NCBI GenBank assembly: GCA_050015515.1 | Contig: JBEKBG010000007.1 | Location: 1 to 41,805, forward strand | DNA from: Minisyncoccia bacterium | Lineage (GTDB): Bacteria; Patescibacteriota; Minisyncoccia; UBA6257; 2-01-FULL-56-20 | DNA length: 41,805 bases | Direction of reading: 5' to 3' | Shown: positions 3,592 through 39,552 of the stretch, piece after piece | Layout: every line of letters begins with the position of its first letter | Position numbering within the stretch: position 1 is the stretch's first letter | Program-made: the position numbers and the translations under genes | Notes under the pieces: model-generated | Told to the model about the DNA's origin: nothing | Database searches by the model: none | What the model saw: only the letters and a program-made list of their open reading frames with translations

Positions 3592-3743
3592 CTCTCGCGC
3601 CAGCATCGTATTCTGCGAGGGGCTCCGCAGGCGGTTCGGCATGGTCCGTTCGTTCTGACGAACGGCGAACCGCCGAGGACTGAGCGAGCCCATCGCTGGG
3701 TGGGCGAAGCGTACCCTCGCAGAATACGATGCTGGCGCGAGAG
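3592..3743. repeat. Fold-back element: perfect 30-bp inverted arms around a 92-nt branched core (GGGTAC family)
   Basis: 3592-3621 is the exact reverse complement of 3714-3743; interior has GCTC/GAGC, ccgttcgt/acgaacgg and gcccatc/ggtgggc stems. Confidence 0.9.
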
Positions 3744-7901: not shown

Positions 7902-8026
7902 TAGCAAAAACACAAAGGGATATTATTTTGAGGGCTCTCGGAGACGACGAAGGTCGCCGAGAGGGAGCGGCCGCGCAGCAGCGCGGAACGCGTACCTCAA
8001 GATAATATCCCTTTGTGTTTTTGCTA
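7902..8026. repeat. Fold-back element: 32-bp inverted arms (1 mismatch) around a branched core (GGGTAC family)
   Basis: 7902-7933 vs 7995-8026; right arm includes the ftsQ stop codon; core gctc...gagc, ccgcgc/gcgcgg, GCGTA. Confidence 0.9.
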
Positions 8027-8886: not shown

Positions 8887-8966
8887 CCGCGAAAAGGAAG
8901 GAGGATGCGCCTTCGCAGCATGGAAGATTAAATGCTGCGAAAGCGTATCCTCCTTCCTTTTCGCGG
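8887..8966. repeat. Long hairpin: 35-bp arms (2 mismatches), loop GGAAGATTAA
   Basis: 8887-8921 vs 8932-8966, just downstream of the serS stop. Confidence 0.9.
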
Positions 8967-15509: not shown

Positions 15510-16052
15510 ATGATAATCACCATCGGAGGAAAGGTAGGCGCAGGAAAGTCCACGCTCGCAGCGATGCTATCGCATGAACTGAATTATGAACAGCTGTATG
15601 TGGGCGGCATTTTCCGCGAAATGGCTGCGGAGAAAAATCTCACCATCGAGCAGTTCTATACAGAGCTCAAAGACGATCCCGCAATCGAACAAACCGTGGA
15701 CCAGCGCCAGGCGACGCTCATGCGCGAGAAGGATAACCTTATCGTGAAGGGACGCATCGCGTGGTACTTCGCCAAAAGCAGCCCTTTTAAGATATTTAAC
15801 GTCTTTCTCGCTGTCGATCCCACAACGGGCGCGCGCCGTTCCGGCGAGCGAAAAGAGAACGCAGGACGATCGACCGATGAAATGATCATCGCTACCGCCG
15901 AGCGCGAAAAGATGGAGCACGAGCGATATTCCATGCTCTACGGAATCGAAAACCATCTCGACCCAGCCCACTACGATCTTGTCATTGATACGAGCATGCT
16001 CACTCCACAAGAAACATTCGACAAGGTGATGACGGCGGTGAAAGGACAATAA
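15510..16052 (+). CDS. cmk: Cytidylate kinase (short, archaeal-type family)
   Basis: IITIGGKVGAGKST, GGIFREMA, RY..LYGI, YDLVIDTS. Confidence 0.8.
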   Translation: MIITIGGKVGAGKSTLAAMLSHELNYEQLYVGGIFREMAAEKNLTIEQFYTELKDDPAIEQTVDQRQATLMREKDNLIVKGRIAWYFAKSSPFKIFNVFLAVDPTTGARRSGERKENAGRSTDEMIIATAEREKMEHERYSMLYGIENHLDPAHYDLVIDTSMLTPQETFDKVMTAVKGQ

Positions 16053-16146
16053 AAAAGACACACTGGGTTTCGCTCCGACGTAAGCGACCAACGGAAGTCC
16101 CGTGGAAAACGTCCACTCGCGAAACCCAGTGTGTCTTTTTTATTGT
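16046..16146. repeat. Fold-back element with perfect 28-bp arms between convergent cmk and rplK; may also act as a bidirectional terminator
   Basis: 16046-16073 is the reverse complement of 16119-16146; left arm contains the cmk stop codon; 45-nt interior has small stems. Confidence 0.85.
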
Positions 16147-26685: not shown

Positions 26686-26769
26686 TCCGCAAGCGCTCAT
26701 AGCCGCATACTTTTTGGAGCAATTAATCTTCCTTGCTCCAAAAAGTATGCGGCTATGAGCGCTTGCGGA
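26686..26769. repeat. Long hairpin: perfect 37-bp arms, loop GGAAGATTAA (minus strand)
   Basis: 26686-26722 is the reverse complement of 26733-26769; right arm covers the last codons and stop of rodA. Confidence 0.92.
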
Positions 26770-29076: not shown

Positions 29077-29193
29077 GATGTCGGCACATCCTACTTTCCC
29101 CGCCCGAGGGCAAGTATCATGGGATAGGGACGCTTTCACTTCTCTGTTCGGAATGGGAAGAGGTGGGACACGCCCGAATGAAGCACCGACATC
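29077..29193 (-). rRNA. rrf: 5S ribosomal RNA
   Basis: Minus strand ccacctcttcccattccgaacagagaagtgaa...gggaaagtagg, terminal helix gatgtcgg/ccgacatc; downstream of the 23S. Confidence 0.93.
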
Positions 29194-29205: not shown

Positions 29206-29270
29206 GCATGTGGGTGAGTGTTCTAAAAAACTAGAAGATTAATAGTTTTTTAGAACACTCACCCACATGC
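29206..29270. repeat. Long hairpin: perfect 28-bp arms, loop GAAGATTAA
   Basis: 29206-29233 vs 29243-29270 in the 23S-5S spacer. Confidence 0.92.
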
Positions 29271-29316
29271 TCACCGCCTAGTGATTAATTGATTCTTTAT
29301 TGTAGATAAAGAATGA

Positions 29317-29383
29317 GATAGTGCGCTGCATGCTTTTGAAAACTATTAATCTGCTAGTTTTCAAAAGCATGCAGCGCACTATC
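29317..29383. repeat. Long hairpin: perfect 29-bp arms, loop GCAGATTAA (minus strand)
   Basis: 29317-29345 vs 29355-29383 in the 23S-5S spacer. Confidence 0.92.
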
Positions 29384-29515
29384 GAATGCAAGTCAGCATT
29401 GGGATGGTTGGCGGGATTATTAGTACGTCTTGGCTAAAAACATTGCTGTCCTTACACCGAACGCCTATCAACGTCATAGTCTATGACGAAATCACGCATA
29501 CCTAATCTTGGGGTG

Positions 29516-29548
<33 letters not shown>

Positions 29549-29690
29549 CTTCCATACATAGCTACCCGGCAATTCACTTGGTAGCAAAGCCGGTAGACCA
29601 GAGGTATGTTCAACCCAGTCCTCTCGTACTAAGGTCAACTCCCCTCAAGTATTAAACGCCTGCAGCAGATAGAGACCGACCTGTCTCACG

Positions 29691-30045
29691 CAACTTCTTT
29701 TTCATCGCCATTACTGGCGGGTTGGACTATACCACCATCTCAATTGAGATGATCGACGTGTTAGCCCGGCATGATTGCCGGACTCCAGTTCTTTCGAACC
29801 AAGTCTCTAAGGGGTCAATGCACAAAAATAAATTTTGCGCACGACTTCCCTCGGTATTATCCTCACGGTCCAGGTCTAGACCACATAAGGACTTCACCGA
29901 TATGAGTCGATTTTCACGCTTTACGATTCGTCGGACGAATGACGAACTTTAATGCAAAGCTTCACTCCTTGGTATCGCTACCAAGGGCCGCCGTTTCTTC
30001 TTTTAACAGTTTCTTTCGTTACCTTCGATTGGGTTATCTACGTTG
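29691..30045 (-). ncRNA. Group I intron at 23S position 2593 (E. coli numbering), no ORF, 355 nt
   Basis: Interrupts GACCGU|CGUGAGA; exon ends in U, intron ends in G; core-like cttagagact and gtatagtcc. Confidence 0.9.
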
Positions 30046-30716
30046 ACGGTCTGAACCCAGCTCACGTGCCACTTTAATTGGCGAACAGCCAAACGCTTGG
30101 GAGCTTCTACACCCCCGCGCTGTGGCGAGCCGACATCGAGGTGCCGAGCATTGTCGTCGCTAGGGACGCTCGGACAATACTAGCCTGTTATCCCCGGAGT
30201 AGCTTTTATCCGGTGTCTCCGGCCTTTCTATGAAGGGCCGTCGGGTCACTAACTTCTGCTTTCGCACCTGCTCGTCTTGTAGGACTCGCAGTCAAGCCAG
30301 CTTTTGCGTTTGCACGTCCTGCCCGATTTCCATCCGGGCTAAGCTGACCTTAATAAACTCCTCCGTTACTCTTTTGGAGGAAAACGCCCCATTTAAACTG
30401 CCTACCAAGCACTGTCTTCGCATGGCTTCCCCGAAGGGTTCCATACGAGTTAGACGTTAAAGTTTTAAAAATGGCTGTTTCATTGTCGGATCCACGTCAC
30501 CCGAAAGCGACGCTTCAAATCCTCACCACTACGCTACGTAGTAAAACTCTAAAATCAATACCAAGCTGCAGTAAAGCTTCCGGGGTCTTTTCGTCCCGCT
30601 GCAGGTATCCCGCGTCTTCACGGGAATCGCATTTTCACCGAGCTCATCGTTGAGACAGTTCTCCGGTCGTTACACCTTTCGTGCGCTTCGGAACTTACCC
30701 GAAAAGGAATTGCGCT

Positions 30717-31166
30717 CAAACATGTTACAACACTTTTTGTTGGCCAAAACATTTCTGCTTGGCTCTCTATGTCGCCATAGAGTTCGGACTATATCTTATC
30801 GCCTTGCGACGATCCTAACGTGTAGTCTCTGAGGATCCTTCGCGCATCGAGTAATGGGTGGGAATGGGATCCGAAGATCCCATTCCCATGGGAGATAACA
30901 CAACTTTGCTGTGTCAATACATTCCGGATGAGCCGAAGCTCAAAATATCCTCTTGCGGGATACCGAATGGCGTTGAACCAAAAGATTCGCGGCGTCACGG
31001 TCCCGCATCGGGAAATGTCGGACTTTGACCTTATGTTTTCGCCCATTATTCGATGCACCAAGTTTCCTGCTGATTGTCCGCATCGATCAAAGATTGTTAC
31101 CTTGCGGTACTTTGATATGCGCGGGTATTCCAGCATATAGTTAGGTTTTACTAAGGCAATGCAATC
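30717..31166 (-). ncRNA. Group I intron at 23S position 1931, 450 nt
   Basis: Interrupts CUAAGGU|AGCG; 5' gccttag guide pairs with the exon; aatcagcagg, ctcagagactac, aagatatagtcc; terminal G. Confidence 0.92.
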
Positions 31167-31180
31167 ACCTTAGAACGATT

Positions 31181-31922
31181 CTTTCACGTTATCACCCGCT
31201 CGTTTTTTAATTTAAGCGGGATCCTCATGGTCGCCCATGAGATCGGACTATATCATCTCTAAAATGTTTTAGAGTCTGGCGTATAGTCTCTGAGGATTCC
31301 TTGATAGTCTATTTCACGTCGTTCCAGTTATATTTACGCCTTCTTCCCCTGCCCTCATTTAAATTTTCTCTGATAGCGACAATTTCTTGAAGTCCTTTTG
31401 GATCAAGATGCTTCCCTTGCTCCATTAAAAATGCAATTTGTCTAAACAGAGAAAAGTTTTTCTGTTTTGATAAGGAAAAGAAAGAAAACTTTTCAAAAAA
31501 CGGTATGACGCGATCAATGATCGAACGATAATCGCCAACAACGAAGTAATGCACTCCGTCCTTTCGATATTGCAATCGTCCGCAACCTAAATGACTTTTT
31601 AATAATTCCAAATTGGCGATGTCGCGCTGGGCCACGTTGAAGGTCATTTGCACCTGCCATCCGAGGCGGTGCCCATTCCCTTTTCGAAGAGAGACGTTAA
31701 AACTTCCCTCTCCATCTGTGAAACCAGAAAGATACCAGCCAACGTTGTCTGGAATTTTCTCAAGCCATTCACGGTTATACCAAGGCCTTTCCTGCTGATT
31801 GTCTGCACCGATCATATTGTCACTATACTCAATCAAGATTAAATCTTTATTAAATATAGTAATGTCGGATACCCAGAGTTTCCAGCATTTGGCCAGATTT
31901 TATAACTACAATCGTTATGTTT
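31181..31922 (-). mobile_element. Group I intron at 23S position 1917 carrying a homing endonuclease, 742 nt
   Basis: Interrupts AACUAU|AAUCG; core aatcagcagg, ctcagagactata, gatatagtcc; terminal G. Confidence 0.92.
31309..31836 (-). CDS. Single-motif LAGLIDADG homing endonuclease
   Basis: WYLSGFTDGEGSF, F.VAQ, LGCG, IPFFEK..K..NF..F motifs; lies inside the L1917 intron. Confidence 0.95.
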   Translation of the reverse strand: MIEYSDNMIGADNQQERPWYNREWLEKIPDNVGWYLSGFTDGEGSFNVSLRKGNGHRLGWQVQMTFNVAQRDIANLELLKSHLGCGRLQYRKDGVHYFVVGDYRSIIDRVIPFFEKFSFFSLSKQKNFSLFRQIAFLMEQGKHLDPKGLQEIVAIRENLNEGRGRRRKYNWNDVK

Positions 31923-33341
31923 ATAGTTATCGCTGACATTGACGAGGGCTTGACTCAGTGAGCAGTACAGATTGCTCCATACCACCCCCAAGCTTGACCT
32001 TCTCGCATCGGTCAGGTGTCACCCCCTATACATCCTGTTGCCAGTTAGCAGGGAGCTGTGTTTTTGGTAAACAGTCGCCAGAGATTCTTTAGCTGCGGCC
32101 CTACTTGCCCCGGCTTACGCCGGACTTCATAGGGCAGGCCTTATTGCTAACTTACGGCCGCTATTTTGCCTAGTTCCTTAACGATGAATCACTCGTTCCC
32201 CTTGGGCTACTCGCCCTATCCACCAGTGTCGGTTTACGGTACGGAGACCCTCGAAAGGCACTTCACAGATGTCGGCCAAGTAAATTCTTAACCTTCTCTC
32301 GGTACACGCTTGCGCTCAGTACAAAGAATGCCAAACCAATAAGGCACATCTGCTTATCTCCTTTGTCCTCTGGTTATGATCGTACGGTCGGGCTGGAATA
32401 TTAACCAGCTTCCCATCGACTGCCCCTTTCGGGATCGCCTTAGGACCGCCTCACCCGTGGTTGATTGCCAGTGCCACGGAAACCTTGGATTTTCGGGGTT
32501 CCAATTTCTCATTGGGATTGTGGTTACTCATTCCAACATTTTCTCTTCCGGCCGCTCCAGTCGCCCTCGCGGGTCGACCTTCTCTGCAGGCCGAAATGCT
32601 CTCCTACCACTTACACCTCCCGAAGGAAGTATAAATTCGTATCTTCGGTACCATGCTTAGCCCCGGTACATTTTCGGCGCCGCGACCCGTCGAATAGTGA
32701 GTTGTTACACACTCTTTAAAGGATGGCTACCTCTAAGCCAACCTCCTATCTGTCTATGGGTTACGACTACCTTTCACACTTAGCATGGATTTAGGGACCT
32801 TAGATGACGATCTGGGCTCTTCCCCTCGCGACCACGGAGCTTAGCCCCCGCAGTCTAACTAGCAAGATCTTGACTCTCGGTATTCGGAGTTTGATTGATC
32901 GTTCGGTCTTTCGACCTGTAACGATCATCCAGTGCTCTACCCCCAAGAGGAACTCTTGCCGCCAGTCCTAAAACTGTTTCGGAGAGAACCAGCTATTACG
33001 TTATTCGATTAGCTTTTCACTCCTTACCTCAGCTCATCCGAAGATTTTGAACAATCAACCGGTTCGGGCCTCCCTCCCGATTTCTCGGGAGTTCACCCTG
33101 GCCAAGGCAAGCTCATAACGCTTCGGGTCTATCTTCTGCTGCATATATGTCGCCCTATTCAGACTCGCTTTCGCTATGCCTACACGCTATGCGCGCTTAG
33201 ACTGCAACAAAAAATAAGTCGTTGGATCATTCTTCAATAGGCACACTGTTACACTCGAACTCCCTTGCGGGAGATCGTTCGTGCTTCAGTTCCTTGTAGG
33301 CAAACGGTTTCAGGTTCTATTTCAACGGCCTCACCGGCCTG

Positions 33342-33378
<37 letters not shown>

Positions 33379-33951
33379 ATCTAGAAAAGTATTTAGCCTT
33401 ACCTGATAGTACAGGTATATTCCTCCGGAACTGTTTTACTCCGAAGTACTCGAGTTAAAAAACTAAGGAGACCAATTGTTTTCGTCTAGGGGGCTATCAC
33501 CCGCTCTGGCGCCGCTTTCCAGACGGCTTTGACTAACAAAAGATTTTTTTACTCCTCCACCTCTTAATGAGTAACGAAACACACACTTGCGTATGTGCTA
33601 CGTTACTTATTAAAAGAGCGTCTTTAGACTATACCCTAAGGTCGCAATATAAATCACAACCTTAGTTTGGGCTGTTCCCTGTTCTCTCGCCGATACTAGG
33701 GGAATAACTGATTTGTTCTTTTTTCCTCCGCTTACTGGAATGTTTTACTTCAGCGGGTACGCGAATCGACTTGCGTCGAAACAATTGAGGTTTACTCAAC
33801 TAGGTTTCCCCATTCGGAAATCCCCGGATCATAGATTGCTACGCATCTCCCCGAGGCATATCGTTGCTACGCCACGTCCTTCATCGCCTTTTCTAGTCTA
33901 GGCATCCACCGTTCGCCCTTATTTGCCAACCATCCCAATGCTGACTTGCTC

Positions 33952-34032
33952 GTGATGTGCACGAATTAGTTTTTTTGACGGAAATGCCAGGTAGGAACCT
34001 GACCGTCAAAAAAATTAATTCGCGCACATCAC
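33952..34032. repeat. Fold-back element: 25-bp arms around the conserved 31-nt core
   Basis: Arms 33952-33976/34008-34032 (2 mismatches); core gacggaaatgccaggtaggaacctgaccgtc. Confidence 0.9.
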
Positions 34033-34382
34033 TTGCCATCAGTAAGAAAAAATTCTCACTGATGATTTGACTCTGACTTGCCACGAGAAATTGAGTACAT
34101 ATGCGTATGCACCGATCCGGCCCGCCCGCAATGCGGACGTTAGCGACCAGACCTAATAGTGACACAGAGTCTCCATATTATGTCCTCCGACTCTACAATT
34201 CGGAGTTCCGCCAAAACGGCAGATGATTTTAAATAACGCTACCAATGCCGCGAGGCACTGAGGATACAAGGGCCAAGAAAAAAAATCAGCCGCTCAGCGG
34301 CCGTTCCCTCACGTGAAATACGCGCGGTCAGCCGTCTTGCTGTGAAAGATTAGTGTTCTTTACCATTCGTATCTTAGGGATA

Positions 34383-34410
34383 AGTATACTCGGCCGGAAA
34401 AGGATGTCAA
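34383..34410 (-). promoter_or_regulatory. Sigma70 promoter, probably for the 23S-5S unit
   Basis: TTGACA-16nt-TATACT on the minus strand about 450 nt upstream of the 23S. Confidence 0.75.
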
Positions 34411-34483
34411 TAGGGTGTGCCGGAAGGTACATTAGAGAATTCCATGAGGATGCTTTTACTGCCTATTTATATCGTGATATCCT

Positions 34484-34972
34484 ATGCTTATGACGGAATC
34501 TTCTGAATATTATAAGAGCCTTCCCAAGAAAAGAATGGGGGCGGGGGCGTTGTTTTTTAATAAAAGAAAAGAACTCTTGATTGTAAGACCTACTTATAAA
34601 AATCACTGGTCAATCCCTGGGGGCGTAGTTGACGCAAATGAATCTCCACGGGAAGCATGCGTTCGCGAGATAAAAGAGGAGATGGGATTGACCATCTCCG
34701 AACCGCGATTCTTGTGCGTGGCCTATTATAAAAATCCCGGCGTCGAAAAAGGTGAGGGTCTCCAGTTCATGTTCTATGGAGGAATCATGGATGACGCTAC
34801 GGCGACGCATATTGTTTTACAAAAAGAAGAGTTGTCCGAATATAAATTCGTCCCGATCAATGAAGCGATCCAACTTCTTGGAAAGGGATTAGCGGTAAGA
34901 TTGCCATTCTGCATGGAAGCGATTGCCAGCGAAAAAGCGGTGTATCTCGAAAGAGAAAGCTCCGATTCATAG
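34484..34972 (+). CDS. NUDIX hydrolase
   Basis: Nudix box PGGVVDANESPREACVREIKEEMGL. Confidence 0.92.
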   Translation: MLMTESSEYYKSLPKKRMGAGALFFNKRKELLIVRPTYKNHWSIPGGVVDANESPREACVREIKEEMGLTISEPRFLCVAYYKNPGVEKGEGLQFMFYGGIMDDATATHIVLQKEELSEYKFVPINEAIQLLGKGLAVRLPFCMEAIASEKAVYLERESSDS

Positions 34973-34989
34973 ATATAATTTTAACCAGA

Positions 34990-35070
34990 GAAACAAAACC
35001 ATCCTCTCGTTTTTGACGGTCACGTTCCTACGTGGCATTTCCGTCAAAAACGAGAGGATGGTTTTGTTTC
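34990..35070. repeat. Fold-back element: perfect 25-bp arms around the same 31-nt core in the opposite orientation
   Basis: Arms 34990-35014/35046-35070; core reverse complement gacggaaatgccacgtaggaacgtgaccgtc. Confidence 0.92.
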
Positions 35071-35076
35071 GAGTTG

Positions 35077-35147
35077 TCGGGCCGCCGGGAATCGAACCCG
35101 GTCTTTACGAACCCGAATCGCACGTACTACCGGTATACTACGGCCCG
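35077..35147 (-). tRNA. tRNA-Pro(CGG), CCA not encoded
   Basis: Cloverleaf cgggccg...cggcccg-a, anticodon loop TT-CGG-GT, T loop TTCGATT. Confidence 0.93.
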
Positions 35148-35256: not shown

Positions 35257-35320
35257 TTGACAGGCTATGGTATGGGTTTATAGTTATTACCAAGTAATAC
35301 TAAGTAATAACCATAAACCC
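35257..35320 (+). promoter_or_regulatory. Toxin-antitoxin promoter with overlapping inverted-repeat operator
   Basis: TTGACA-16nt-TATAGT; 17-bp inverted repeat 35274-35290/35304-35320 with repeated GTAATA. Confidence 0.75.
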
Positions 35321-35635
35321 ATGAGAACCACACAAACAATGACGGTCTCCATTCCCCCGGCGCTTATCCGCCAGTTCGAAGAAGTGCGGAAAAAGGAATC
35401 ACGCACGCGGTCCGAGCTTGTTCGTGAGGCTCTGCGTGCATATTTCGAAAGCCGCTATCCCGAGGTAACGCCAACGAAAGAAGAACTTGCGGCACTGCGA
35501 CGCGGACGAGCTGCCTTCCAGCGCGGCGACGTTATGCCGTTAAAAAAATTCCTCCATGACATGGAATCTGCTGATCACCACGCCAGCGCGAAAAGAACTC
35601 AAAAAAATTCCGCAAAAAGATCGGGGGCGCATTAA
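35321..35635 (+). CDS. Ribbon-helix-helix (CopG family) antitoxin
   Basis: TMTVSIP...RTRSELVREALRAY RHH pattern; upstream of and overlapping the RelE-like gene. Confidence 0.85.
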   Translation: MRTTQTMTVSIPPALIRQFEEVRKKESRTRSELVREALRAYFESRYPEVTPTKEELAALRRGRAAFQRGDVMPLKKFLHDMESADHHASAKRTQKNSAKRSGAH

Positions 35636-35816
35636 CGCTGCGCTCATCACCATACAAAACAACCCTTTTCGTGGGGACCTGAAACGCCTCAAAGGAACAA
35701 CGACTGCCTGGCGTTGCAGAGTGGGCAATTATCGAATCATTTATGATCTTTATTTCAACAACCGCATGATCGTTGTTGGGTCAATCCTCCGGCGAACCTC
35801 AACGACCTACGAATAG
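35556..35816 (+). CDS. RelE/ParE family toxin
   Basis: A.KELKKIP, NPF..DLKRLKG, WRCRVGNYRIIY. Confidence 0.9.
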   Translation: MTWNLLITTPARKELKKIPQKDRGRINAALITIQNNPFRGDLKRLKGTTTAWRCRVGNYRIIYDLYFNNRMIVVGSILRRTSTTYE

Positions 35817-39439: not shown

Positions 39440-39552
39440 AGCTTATCCAACATGCCCCGAAAGGGTACTTCGGAGCCGCGCAGGCGGCGAGAACTAAGGC
39501 GCGCGTTCAGTAGAACGCGACGCCGTCCCTTTCGGGGCATGTTGGATAAGCT
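39440..39552. repeat. Fold-back element: perfect 26-bp arms around a branched core (GGGTAC family)
   Basis: 39440-39465 vs 39527-39552, abutting the tRNA 3' end; core starts GGG|TAC then the gccgc/gcggc hairpin. Confidence 0.88.

Follow-up and report, generated by a model that had tools for sequence, protein, structure and literature searches.

Conserved structured modules at the tips of long gene-end hairpins in a Patescibacteria genome, and their turnover between related species

The stretch of DNA analyzed here (the window; 41,805 nt, contig JBEKBG010000007.1 of the Minisyncoccia bacterium assembly GCA_050015515.1) carries on its minus strand a 5S rRNA gene (29079-29190), a 23S rRNA gene (29403..33932), which contains insertions and is 4.5 kb long, and a gene for tRNA-Pro(CGG) (35076..35147), all placed with Rfam and ARAGORN. 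The 23S gene is enclosed by a processing stem, found by a search with the 23S leader, whose 5′ strand (33925..33949, minus strand) is a perfect 25-nt complement of the 3′ strand (29388..29412, minus strand). An open reading frame (ORF) for a NUDIX hydrolase (34484..34972, plus strand) lies between the 23S and tRNA-Pro genes, and on either side of it a long hairpin with a shared core sequence is found; these two hairpins, and the repeat family to which they belong (family A), are the subject of this work. Copy 1 (33952..34032, plus strand) stops 2 nt short of the 5′ strand of this stem, upstream of it in the sense of the pre-rRNA, and copy 2 (34990..35070, minus strand) begins 5 nt downstream of tRNA-Pro; an earlier note on this DNA had correctly placed them just before the stem and after the tRNA. 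The core of copy 1 is antisense to the 23S gene; its arms are not terminator-like, have no outer T-tract, and are followed by the 23S processing stem. Copy 2 sits between the convergent NUDIX and tRNA-Pro genes, its core reads in the direction of tRNA-Pro, and its order (A-tract, GC stem, T-run, core, A-run, GC stem, T-tract) resembles that of a bidirectional terminator.

Read directly from the window, the cores occupy 33977-34007 (plus strand, copy 1) and 35015-35045 (minus strand, copy 2), and both fit the formula GACGGAAATGCCA[G/C]GTAGGAAC[C/G]TGACCGTC. The window holds just these two matches, when none was expected from 100 dinucleotide-preserving shuffles. The earlier note had described the cores as identical at 29 of 31 positions, with a G-C pair swapped for C-G, a T-run next to the core, and arms of 25 bp, and for the two window copies this description was borne out. 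The swap concerns G33990 and C33999 in copy 1, which are C and G in copy 2; as these occupy both sides of pair 3 of an inner helix, CA(G/C)GT-AGGA-AC(C/G)TG, the exchange is compensatory. The helix thus reads CAGGT-AGGA-ACCTG in copy 1 (strands 33988-33992 and 33997-34001, loop 33993-33996) and CACGT-AGGA-ACGTG in copy 2, and its 5 bp are predicted by ViennaRNA and by RNAalifold. Both cores are preceded by a T-run and followed by an A-run (T7/A7 in copy 1, T5/A5 in copy 2), and outside the 31-nt core the arms of either copy measure 25 bp; those of copy 2 are perfect, and those of copy 1 contain one G-T pair and one mismatch. For either strand of each copy, a single long hairpin is predicted (minimum free energy −50 to −58 kcal/mol, z −10 to −12.5 relative to shuffles).

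The two cores had been taken for a pair. They are real, but they are members of a dispersed family: the genome holding the window (G000; 774 kb, 23 contigs, 98% complete) contains 16 cores at up to five mismatches, and three further hairpins carry the variant core GCGCAAATGCC..GAGGACGGTGAGCGC. From G000, its relatives and metagenome contigs, 100 distinct copies with 50-nt flanks were gathered. At up to three mismatches, the core is present in seven of the 22 other species of the genus (G001 to G022, i.e., 23 genus genomes including G000), with 20 copies, and absent from the 18 genomes of other genera that were searched. With a covariance model derived from 34 copies, no true match was obtained in 150 other genomes across the order; two order genomes besides G000 did match it, with the equal scores on both strands of generic long hairpins, and many of its genus-level matches were likewise generic long hairpins. 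Scanning one genome per species (185,579 species) for the exact core returned 14 loci, 13 of them in metagenome-assembled genomes (MAGs) of the same genus. The remaining one (L091), a core-like match in an unrelated MAG, was taken as chance because it lies inside a 264-aa ORF and has no arms (∼0.3 such matches expected in the whole collection by our own estimate). The same scan yielded 75 loci in metagenome contigs and none in viral contigs. Judged from these searches, family A is restricted to the genus.

The recurring unit is ∼45 nt long and consists of a T-run, usually GA, an asymmetric core of 27 nt, TC, and an A-run; the core in turn is made up of CGG, an AAATGC bulge, the 5-bp helix with its AGGA loop, A, and CCG. 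The whole hairpin is a near-perfect palindrome of 85-95 nt, its paired part below the core measuring 25-36 bp. In an ungapped alignment of 34 copies anchored on the core, the consensus is AAAAnAAAAAnnCCCTCTC-TTTTTT-GA-[CGG AAATGC CACGT AGGA ACGTG A CCG]-TC-AAAAAA-GAGAGGGnn-TTTTTnTTTT. Apart from their length the arms had been called unrelated, which is true of the two window copies but not of the family, most members of which share an arm template (A4CA4 followed by a C/T-rich GC stem and the T-run). Pairing is maintained throughout this alignment: standard pairs fill 98.5% of 1190 cells (72% in column shuffles, 43-56% with slid partners), both sides have changed at 28 of 30 arm pairs and at two of five inner-helix pairs, and RNAalifold independently predicts the same structure. 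Among the 100 copies, the inner helix is CACGT/ACGTG in 84, CAGGT/ACCTG in seven, CACAT/ATGTG in two and CACCT/AGGTG in one; in the other six, which include one G-U pair and the chance match L091, it is one-sided or non-pairing. The closing CGG/CCG is swapped for CGC/GCG in two copies. The swap seen in the window is one of several independent compensated changes. G-U pairs make up only 51 of 2736 arm cells, under 2% of the paired cells, and within the arms G-T (44) is not much more common than A-C (32). Thus, the proposal that a single-stranded structure is under selection holds as far as pairing is concerned, but the rarity of G-U and the near parity of A-C mismatches with G-T suggest a constraint that is strand-symmetric or acts at the DNA level, rather than one on the sense RNA only.

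A scan of all of G000 for long inverted repeats returned 101 hairpins of 18 or more paired bases (stems of 18-43 bp), and the loops of almost all of them fall into a few recurrent types. Sorted by eye, these amount to at least seven tip families: family A (AAATGCCACGTAGGAACGTGA; 18 hairpins including three variants), family C (GGGCTCACCCTTCGGGAT; ∼10), family D (TTAATCTTCC / GGAAGATTAA and longer forms; ∼30), family B/E (..TAAGAA..; ∼9), family F (56-73 nt with two inner hairpins; ∼21 by eye, 27 by model), family G (CTCGCTCCAACGTAAGAACGTCCACTCGCT; ∼6), and another type of 92-99 nt (3). The hairpins are extragenic and mostly downstream of ORFs; by a crude ORF call, most of the ∼100 begin −14 to +30 nt from a stop codon. 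Directly upstream of the A copies lie ordinary housekeeping genes (S10, L31, an RF-1/RF-2-type release factor, HisRS, a protease, a membrane-fusion protein, two NUDIX proteins and a cold-shock-like ORF). The layout of an intrinsic terminator, a GC-rich stem-loop followed by a T-tract after the gene, is present in the family consensus and in copy 2 and absent from copy 1. Long hairpins have undergone a burst in this lineage: G000 has 13 of them per 100 kb, as against 1.2 in G007, a congener lacking family A (first 400 kb), and 1.5 and 2.5 in two other genera (200 kb each). G013, G009 and G006 are rich in modules like G000, and G012 and G022 are poor in them like G007.

Family F has a much wider distribution. 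A model built from 20 G000 copies describes a Y-shaped module of 61-73 nt, whose two inner hairpins covary and whose ACGCGT / CTCTCG / CCGAGAG strands are conserved, and it matches 24 of the 150 other order genomes searched, in at least 12 families and including six of seven genera of the same family, at 1-10 copies per genome (27 in G000). In other genera, too, the module is found at the tips of hairpins of 15-30 bp, once adjoining a strand of the 23S processing stem. In an alignment of 43 distinct sequences, pairing holds in 97.8% of cells and two-sided changes are seen at 18 of 20 pairs, with G-U in six of 849 cells; as this alignment was fitted to the model, the figures lean toward the structure. 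No match to family F was found in Rfam, and it is a candidate for a new structured motif in its own right. As family F is found across the order, the class is the older one, and family A is a young member of it that is restricted to the genus.

Orthologous sites of three conserved anchors were fetched from all 23 genus genomes, and at each of them the module differs between species. In the 23S leader, basal arms of the form GTGNTGTRCAC / GTGYACANCAC recur among the module-bearing species and the apex varies: it is family A in G000 and G003, family F in G006, G014 and G018, E-like in G005, a module with an AGGAA loop in G016, other inserts in G013 and G019, and a short loop only in G021 and G011. 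Downstream of tRNA-Pro, on similar A-tract/CCCC arms, at least nine species carry modules of six types (A in G000, D-type in G005 and G013, F in G014 and G007, B/E in G006 and G018, G in G011, another type in G021) and at least six have a plain loop of 4-8 nt (G002, G008, G010, G012, G016, G020); in G003 the site is half-deleted. Downstream of rpsJ, most genomes have a plain terminator, AAAAATCCCCGCG-loop-CGCGGGGATTTTT, with a GC stem and a tetraloop. There, G014 reads TAAAACAAAAAGCCCCGCG-AAA-GCGGGGCTTTTTGTTTTA, and G000, alone of the 23, has the same basal arms with an A unit at the position of the loop; G021 has another module, and in G008 an F hairpin stands ahead of the retained plain terminator. 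The hairpin in the 23S-5S spacer of G003, likewise, has a family-A core where G000 has family D. Since one and the same hairpin can bear different modules in related species, its tip behaves as a small insert that is exchangeable or mobile.

The 20 A copies of other species were also mapped onto G000. Twelve correspond to seven G000 sites that carry A as well, six to five G000 sites that carry F, D or C, and two could not be resolved; none maps to the remaining nine A sites of G000. The 23S-leader copies of seven organisms (G000, G003 and five metagenome contigs) have different arms, all of which are still complementary. At one site of G000 (contig C6, 12856-12987), a degenerate family-A core that has lost its left arm abuts a complete B/E hairpin, the outer arm of which starts where the former A arm began; the orthologues in G009, G001 and G013 have an intact A hairpin. 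Possibly, one hairpin has here overwritten another.

Besides the two A copies, the window contains further long hairpins. Two of family D lie in the 23S-5S region: one (29317..29383; 29-bp stem, loop TTAATCTGC) comes within 4 nt of the processing stem on its 3′ strand, the other (29206..29270; 28-bp stem, loop GAAGATTAA) lies between 23S and 5S. Their loops are nearly complementary, and a 23-bp inverted repeat joins 29227-29249 to 29339-29361; the two hairpins in 29206-29383 could pair with each other in the pre-rRNA. Further family-D hairpins are located at 8887..8966 (35-bp stem) and 26686..26769 (37-bp stem). Family F is represented by 7902..8026 (minus strand; 32-bp stem, 61-nt core) and by 39440..39552 (minus strand; 26-bp stem, 61-nt two-hairpin core), which abuts the 3′ end of a tRNA-Met gene. 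A family-G-like hairpin at 16046..16146 (28-bp stem, 45-nt core) has extra bases in its inner loop, and a hairpin at 3592..3743 (30-bp stem, 92-nt core) belongs to a further recurrent type.

Assembled metatranscriptome contigs from four peat runs, which carry neither transcript ends nor strand, cover the bin 33883-34103 around hairpin 1 at a depth of 0-62; the longest ones listed end at 33921 and resume at 34079, and thus show neither transcription nor processing of this hairpin. The non-coding stretch from copy 1 to the NUDIX gene (34079-34375) is covered by RNA contigs from the four metatranscriptomes, shows conservation within the genus, being 85% identical to G003 across 391 nt, and has no Rfam match; a terminator-like GCCGCTGAGCGGC followed by T8 lies on the minus strand near 34280-34305. 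Within the 23S gene, three sub-threshold matches to group I introns were obtained (30765-31176, 29704-29961, 31224-31399), and in RNA contigs 30716 is linked to 31921 by 12 other letters; these contigs may come from relatives lacking the insertion. Adjoining tRNA-Pro on its other side, overlapping ORFs for a ribbon-helix-helix (CopG-type) protein and a ParE toxin (35267-35816) form a type II toxin-antitoxin pair. Several simpler views of the two A copies were discarded. A composite element, with two inverted A copies around the NUDIX gene, was rejected because G003 has the 23S-leader copy without the NUDIX gene and without the second copy; the NUDIX ORF is missing from this spacer in G003, G018 and G011. 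The TTGACG formed by the T-run and GACGG was rejected as a promoter upon inspection, no −10-like hexamer being suitably spaced on either strand, and local alignment of the core to the 23S and 5S genes of the window gave chance-level scores only.

The data firmly establish family A as a dispersed repeat with a conserved apex, along with its hairpin anatomy, its covariation, its location at gene ends, its turnover between species and the burst in this lineage. On balance, it is probably a palindromic insert riding hairpin loops, similar to repetitive extragenic palindromes (REPs) or miniature inverted-repeat transposable elements (MITEs), which has spread by mobility or by gene conversion. This reading is placed first because orthologous sites turn over, plain alleles look ancestral, one sub-lineage has undergone a burst, family F occurs patchily, and the pairing has a DNA-like symmetry. 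The unit would be inserted into the loop of a pre-existing hairpin, usually a bidirectional intrinsic terminator at a stop codon or tRNA end and in one case the conserved hairpin of the 23S leader; insertion into a loop is, we infer, the mode of origin. Modules are gained, lost and replaced at orthologous hairpins and therefore behave either as small non-autonomous mobile elements or as elements that gene conversion spreads; they would be co-transcribed as the apex of 3′-end hairpins. Selection on the hairpin and/or intra-strand templated correction may uphold the perfect arms, and the core may be conserved since a mobilizing or binding protein reads its sequence. Presence/absence polymorphism between relatives, as observed here, is familiar from MITEs; of MITE-type terminal repeats, only the T-run with GA and the TC with the A-run are common to the copies.

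Several observations weigh against this reading. No cognate transposase was found: G000 has no match to the Y1/RAYT (REP-associated tyrosine transposase) domain PF01797, for which the same search matched six of 14 genomes as a control, and none to IS110 or TnpB, the searches being confined to these transposase families and the genome being 98% complete. The one reverse transcriptase encoded in G000 (PF00078, 90 bits; locus L294, G000:C1:89373-92400) was considered as a mobilizer and rejected, as no link to the hairpins could be shown and the ORF that precedes the nearby A copy is a separate one, cold-shock-like and 65 aa long. Judged by its translations, the locus reads like a diversity-generating retroelement with two targets: an ORF for an Avd-like four-helix protein lies upstream on the other strand, and two further ORFs have almost the same C-terminus. 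No target-site duplication was recognizable when filled and plain sites were compared, nor could a sharp insertion boundary be defined. No two copies in G000 have the same arms, so no copy-and-paste event was caught. Metagenome contigs differ from G000 by two indels of at least 15 nt, neither of them at a hairpin, and near-identical contigs revealed no recent indel at hairpins; at some swapped sites, the whole hairpin differs and not just its tip. Orientation is also biased. Where the flanking ORFs were read, the core in G000 has the direction of the upstream gene in nine of nine co-directional contexts (an automated rule gave eight same and two opposite, one of the latter being copy 2, which is sense to the tRNA), and 88 well-formed copies, many of them orthologues, divide into 36 same, nine opposite, 23 convergent and 20 unassignable. 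Finally, in orthologous groups defined by flank similarity (75-97% flank identity), the p-distance is 0.23-0.28 for the 5′ arm and ∼0.03 for the core, a comparison biased by the copies having been found via the core. The 23S-leader pair of G000 and G003, which was anchored on its flanks, has identical cores on strongly diverged, compensated arms, and orthologues share core variants specific to their locus, CAGGT/ACCTG in the 23S leader and CGC/GCG at the C4 site. The anchored pair and the locus-specific variants are untouched by this bias; they point to constraint on each copy and against wholesale homogenization. Purifying selection copy by copy, as they suggest, is also compatible with a host function.

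Such a function is the serious rival, although with a clearly lower probability. The hairpins would be host RNA signals, i.e., terminators, intercistronic processing sites or 3′-end stabilizers, whose apex is read by a protein that binds or cuts RNA; RNase III acting on the 30-bp stem is one candidate, and the apex families would be alternative tags. RNase III is encoded in G000 (C3:74378-74773, Ribonucleas_3_3, 135 bits), and the predicted family-A stems of 30-33 bp have the ∼20 bp of continuous double strand that define an RNase III substrate. What keeps this alternative in play is the conservation of the core in old copies, the persistence of locus-specific variants across species included, the sense bias (36:9 in family A, 9:1 in F, and 10:3 in D when sense is defined as GGAAGATTAA), and the placement at the ends of genes, tRNAs and rRNAs, in part inside units presumed to be co-transcribed (between 23S and 5S, flanking the 23S stem, and after rpsJ, where the next ORF follows at 111 nt); some tandem genes start 13-60 nt past a hairpin. 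Family F, moreover, is conserved in sequence and structure over at least 12 families of the order. However, sister species have another family or no module at the same site, density differs ten-fold within one genus, family F is patchy (24 of 150 other order genomes), and the 23S-leader core is antisense to the rRNA in seven of seven orthologous copies. The almost complete lack of G-U pairs is likewise atypical of RNA helices. One specific reader of the apex was discarded: the AGGA loop is reminiscent of a CsrA-binding hairpin, yet a search of G000 for CsrA (PF02599) gave no match. Mobility and a role in host RNA are not exclusive, and a domesticated element fits both.

Selection on the core may also be dispensed with altogether. 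The hairpins would then be a neutral by-product, ordinary terminators whose loops are homogenized to a few types by ectopic gene conversion among their similar A-tract/GC-stem arms and whose arms lengthen and are kept perfect by templated (quasipalindrome) correction, with core and length devoid of function. The common arm template could support conversion, the stems are near-perfect with G-T about as frequent as A-C, whole hairpins are replaced in places, and no mobilizing enzyme was found among Y1, IS110 and TnpB; still, we regard this as improbable, given that the asymmetric cores remain unsymmetrized and nearly invariant, that locus-specific variants shared across species speak against strong homogenization, that orientation is biased, and that the inner helices of family F covary across families of the order. 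Much less credible is the mechanism hinted at in the earlier note, in which a structure-specific machine measures a fixed arm of 25 bp. Yeast Rnt1p, which measures from an AGNN loop, is the model for such a ruler; the inner loop AGGA fits AGNN, and both window copies have 25-bp arms. In the 100 copies, however, the arms counted from CGG are mostly 23-36 bp long with a mode of 30, the window value (27 from CGG, equivalent to 25 in the count of the note) occurs in 12, and the stems of the other families range from 18 to 43 bp. As arm length varies, there is no 25-bp ruler. Least credible of all is a REP/REPIN system (REPIN, REP doublet forming hairpins) mobilized by a RAYT transposase. Extragenic palindromes downstream of ORFs, in several families per genome, are described for REPs (PMC3733652), and a GTAG tetranucleotide lies within the core; against this, G000 has no Y1_Tnp, variable stems with a conserved apex are the reverse of a REP, and GTAG is located in the apical helix and loop instead of forming an unpaired tag at the end of the stem. 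The earlier note had named membership in a known Rfam family, or in a REP family with conserved arms, as what would speak against it. Rfam release 15, searched in gathering and E-value modes with the region and the whole window, gave no match for these hairpins, the best scores being those of generic microRNA-precursor or hairpin models (42 bits, gathering threshold 90), and with arms that vary the family lacks the defining features of REPs. The ruler, the REP/RAYT system, the CsrA site and a known Rfam family were thus rejected on tests.

Conserved apices on variable stems together with the replacement of modules at fixed sites suggest a mechanism that targets hairpin loops or the centers of palindromes. 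The tip families may, with somewhat less than an even chance, constitute an undescribed class of modules in this order of Patescibacteria, which colonize and replace one another at the hairpin apices of terminators and of rRNA and tRNA flanks and spread without a recognizable transposase; no description of such elements in Patescibacteria was found in the open-access literature of PMC and bioRxiv. The modules could be a new form of mobile DNA that targets hairpin loops, uses terminators as safe harbors and passes through single-stranded DNA hairpins, a route with which the scarcity of G-T pairs would be consistent. Or else the modules could serve as RNA tags at 3′ ends, a new layer of signals that undescribed factors read in organisms without Rho. 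The Rho RNA-binding domain had no match in G000 (98% complete), so that termination should rest entirely on hairpin terminators; read-through in operons, the maturation of rRNA and tRNA, and mRNA stability could all be altered by elements that remodel the loops of these terminators. About 100 hairpins of 60-170 nt amount to ∼1% of a streamlined genome of 774 kb, a large investment under strong genome reduction. Families A and F provide two strongly covarying motifs new to Rfam, which can be modeled and searched for across the Candidate Phyla Radiation. On the practical side, palindromes of this kind break assemblies and risk being miscalled as microRNA-like or CRISPR-like features.

Several known systems resemble these hairpins in part. 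Intrinsic terminators share with them the A-tract, the GC-rich stem and the T-tract at stop codons or tRNA ends, and sister species have the plain version; here, however, a structured and conserved module of 20-70 nt with an inner T-run and A-run takes the place of a loop of 3-8 nt, and some copies lie within rRNA operons or have no outer T-tract (window copy 1). Long stems with an asymmetric internal loop between cistrons are typical of the RNase III hairpins of T7-type phages; the likeness is structural only, and an RNase III gene is present in G000. Mobile hairpins of organelles (the GC clusters of yeast mitochondria, double-hairpin elements, and the repetitive hairpin-forming elements of sponges) are likewise non-coding and invade intergenic regions. 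Unlike these, the present modules reside in a bacterial chromosome, are tied to terminator hairpins, and have strongly conserved asymmetric cores. With MITEs and with Correia and enterobacterial repetitive intergenic consensus (ERIC) elements they have in common that they are non-autonomous, differ in copy number in a burst-like fashion, are polymorphic for insertion, and form long hairpins in transcripts, those of Correia elements being substrates of RNase III. In contrast to them, conserved long terminal inverted repeats, a target-site duplication and a cognate transposase were not found, the conserved part is central, and the target appears to be the loop of a hairpin.

The closest known kind is that of REPs, REPINs and bacterial interspersed mosaic elements (BIMEs). 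REPs are short extragenic palindromes, mostly downstream of ORFs and in several families per genome (PMC3733652), and BIMEs serve as bidirectional terminators and attenuators (PMC2965389); REPs and BIMEs lie between tandem or convergent genes, are regarded as presumably transcribed terminators, attenuators and mRNA stabilizers, and include families for which no transposase is known (PMC3733652; PMC2965389). The present hairpins are similar in being short, extragenic, palindromic repeats that lie mostly downstream of ORFs, between tandem or convergent genes. Yet three defining features of REPs fail. The stem, which REPs conserve as an imperfect palindrome of 20-40 bp, varies here (28 of 30 arm pairs) below a nearly invariant apex of 27 nt; the ends are A- and T-tracts without a GTAG/CGTC end tag, and the CCGTC of the closing stem is swapped for CCGTT, CCGCC or GCGTG in other copies; and no RAYT was found in G000, whose hairpins, with stems of 25-43 bp, are also far longer than REPs.

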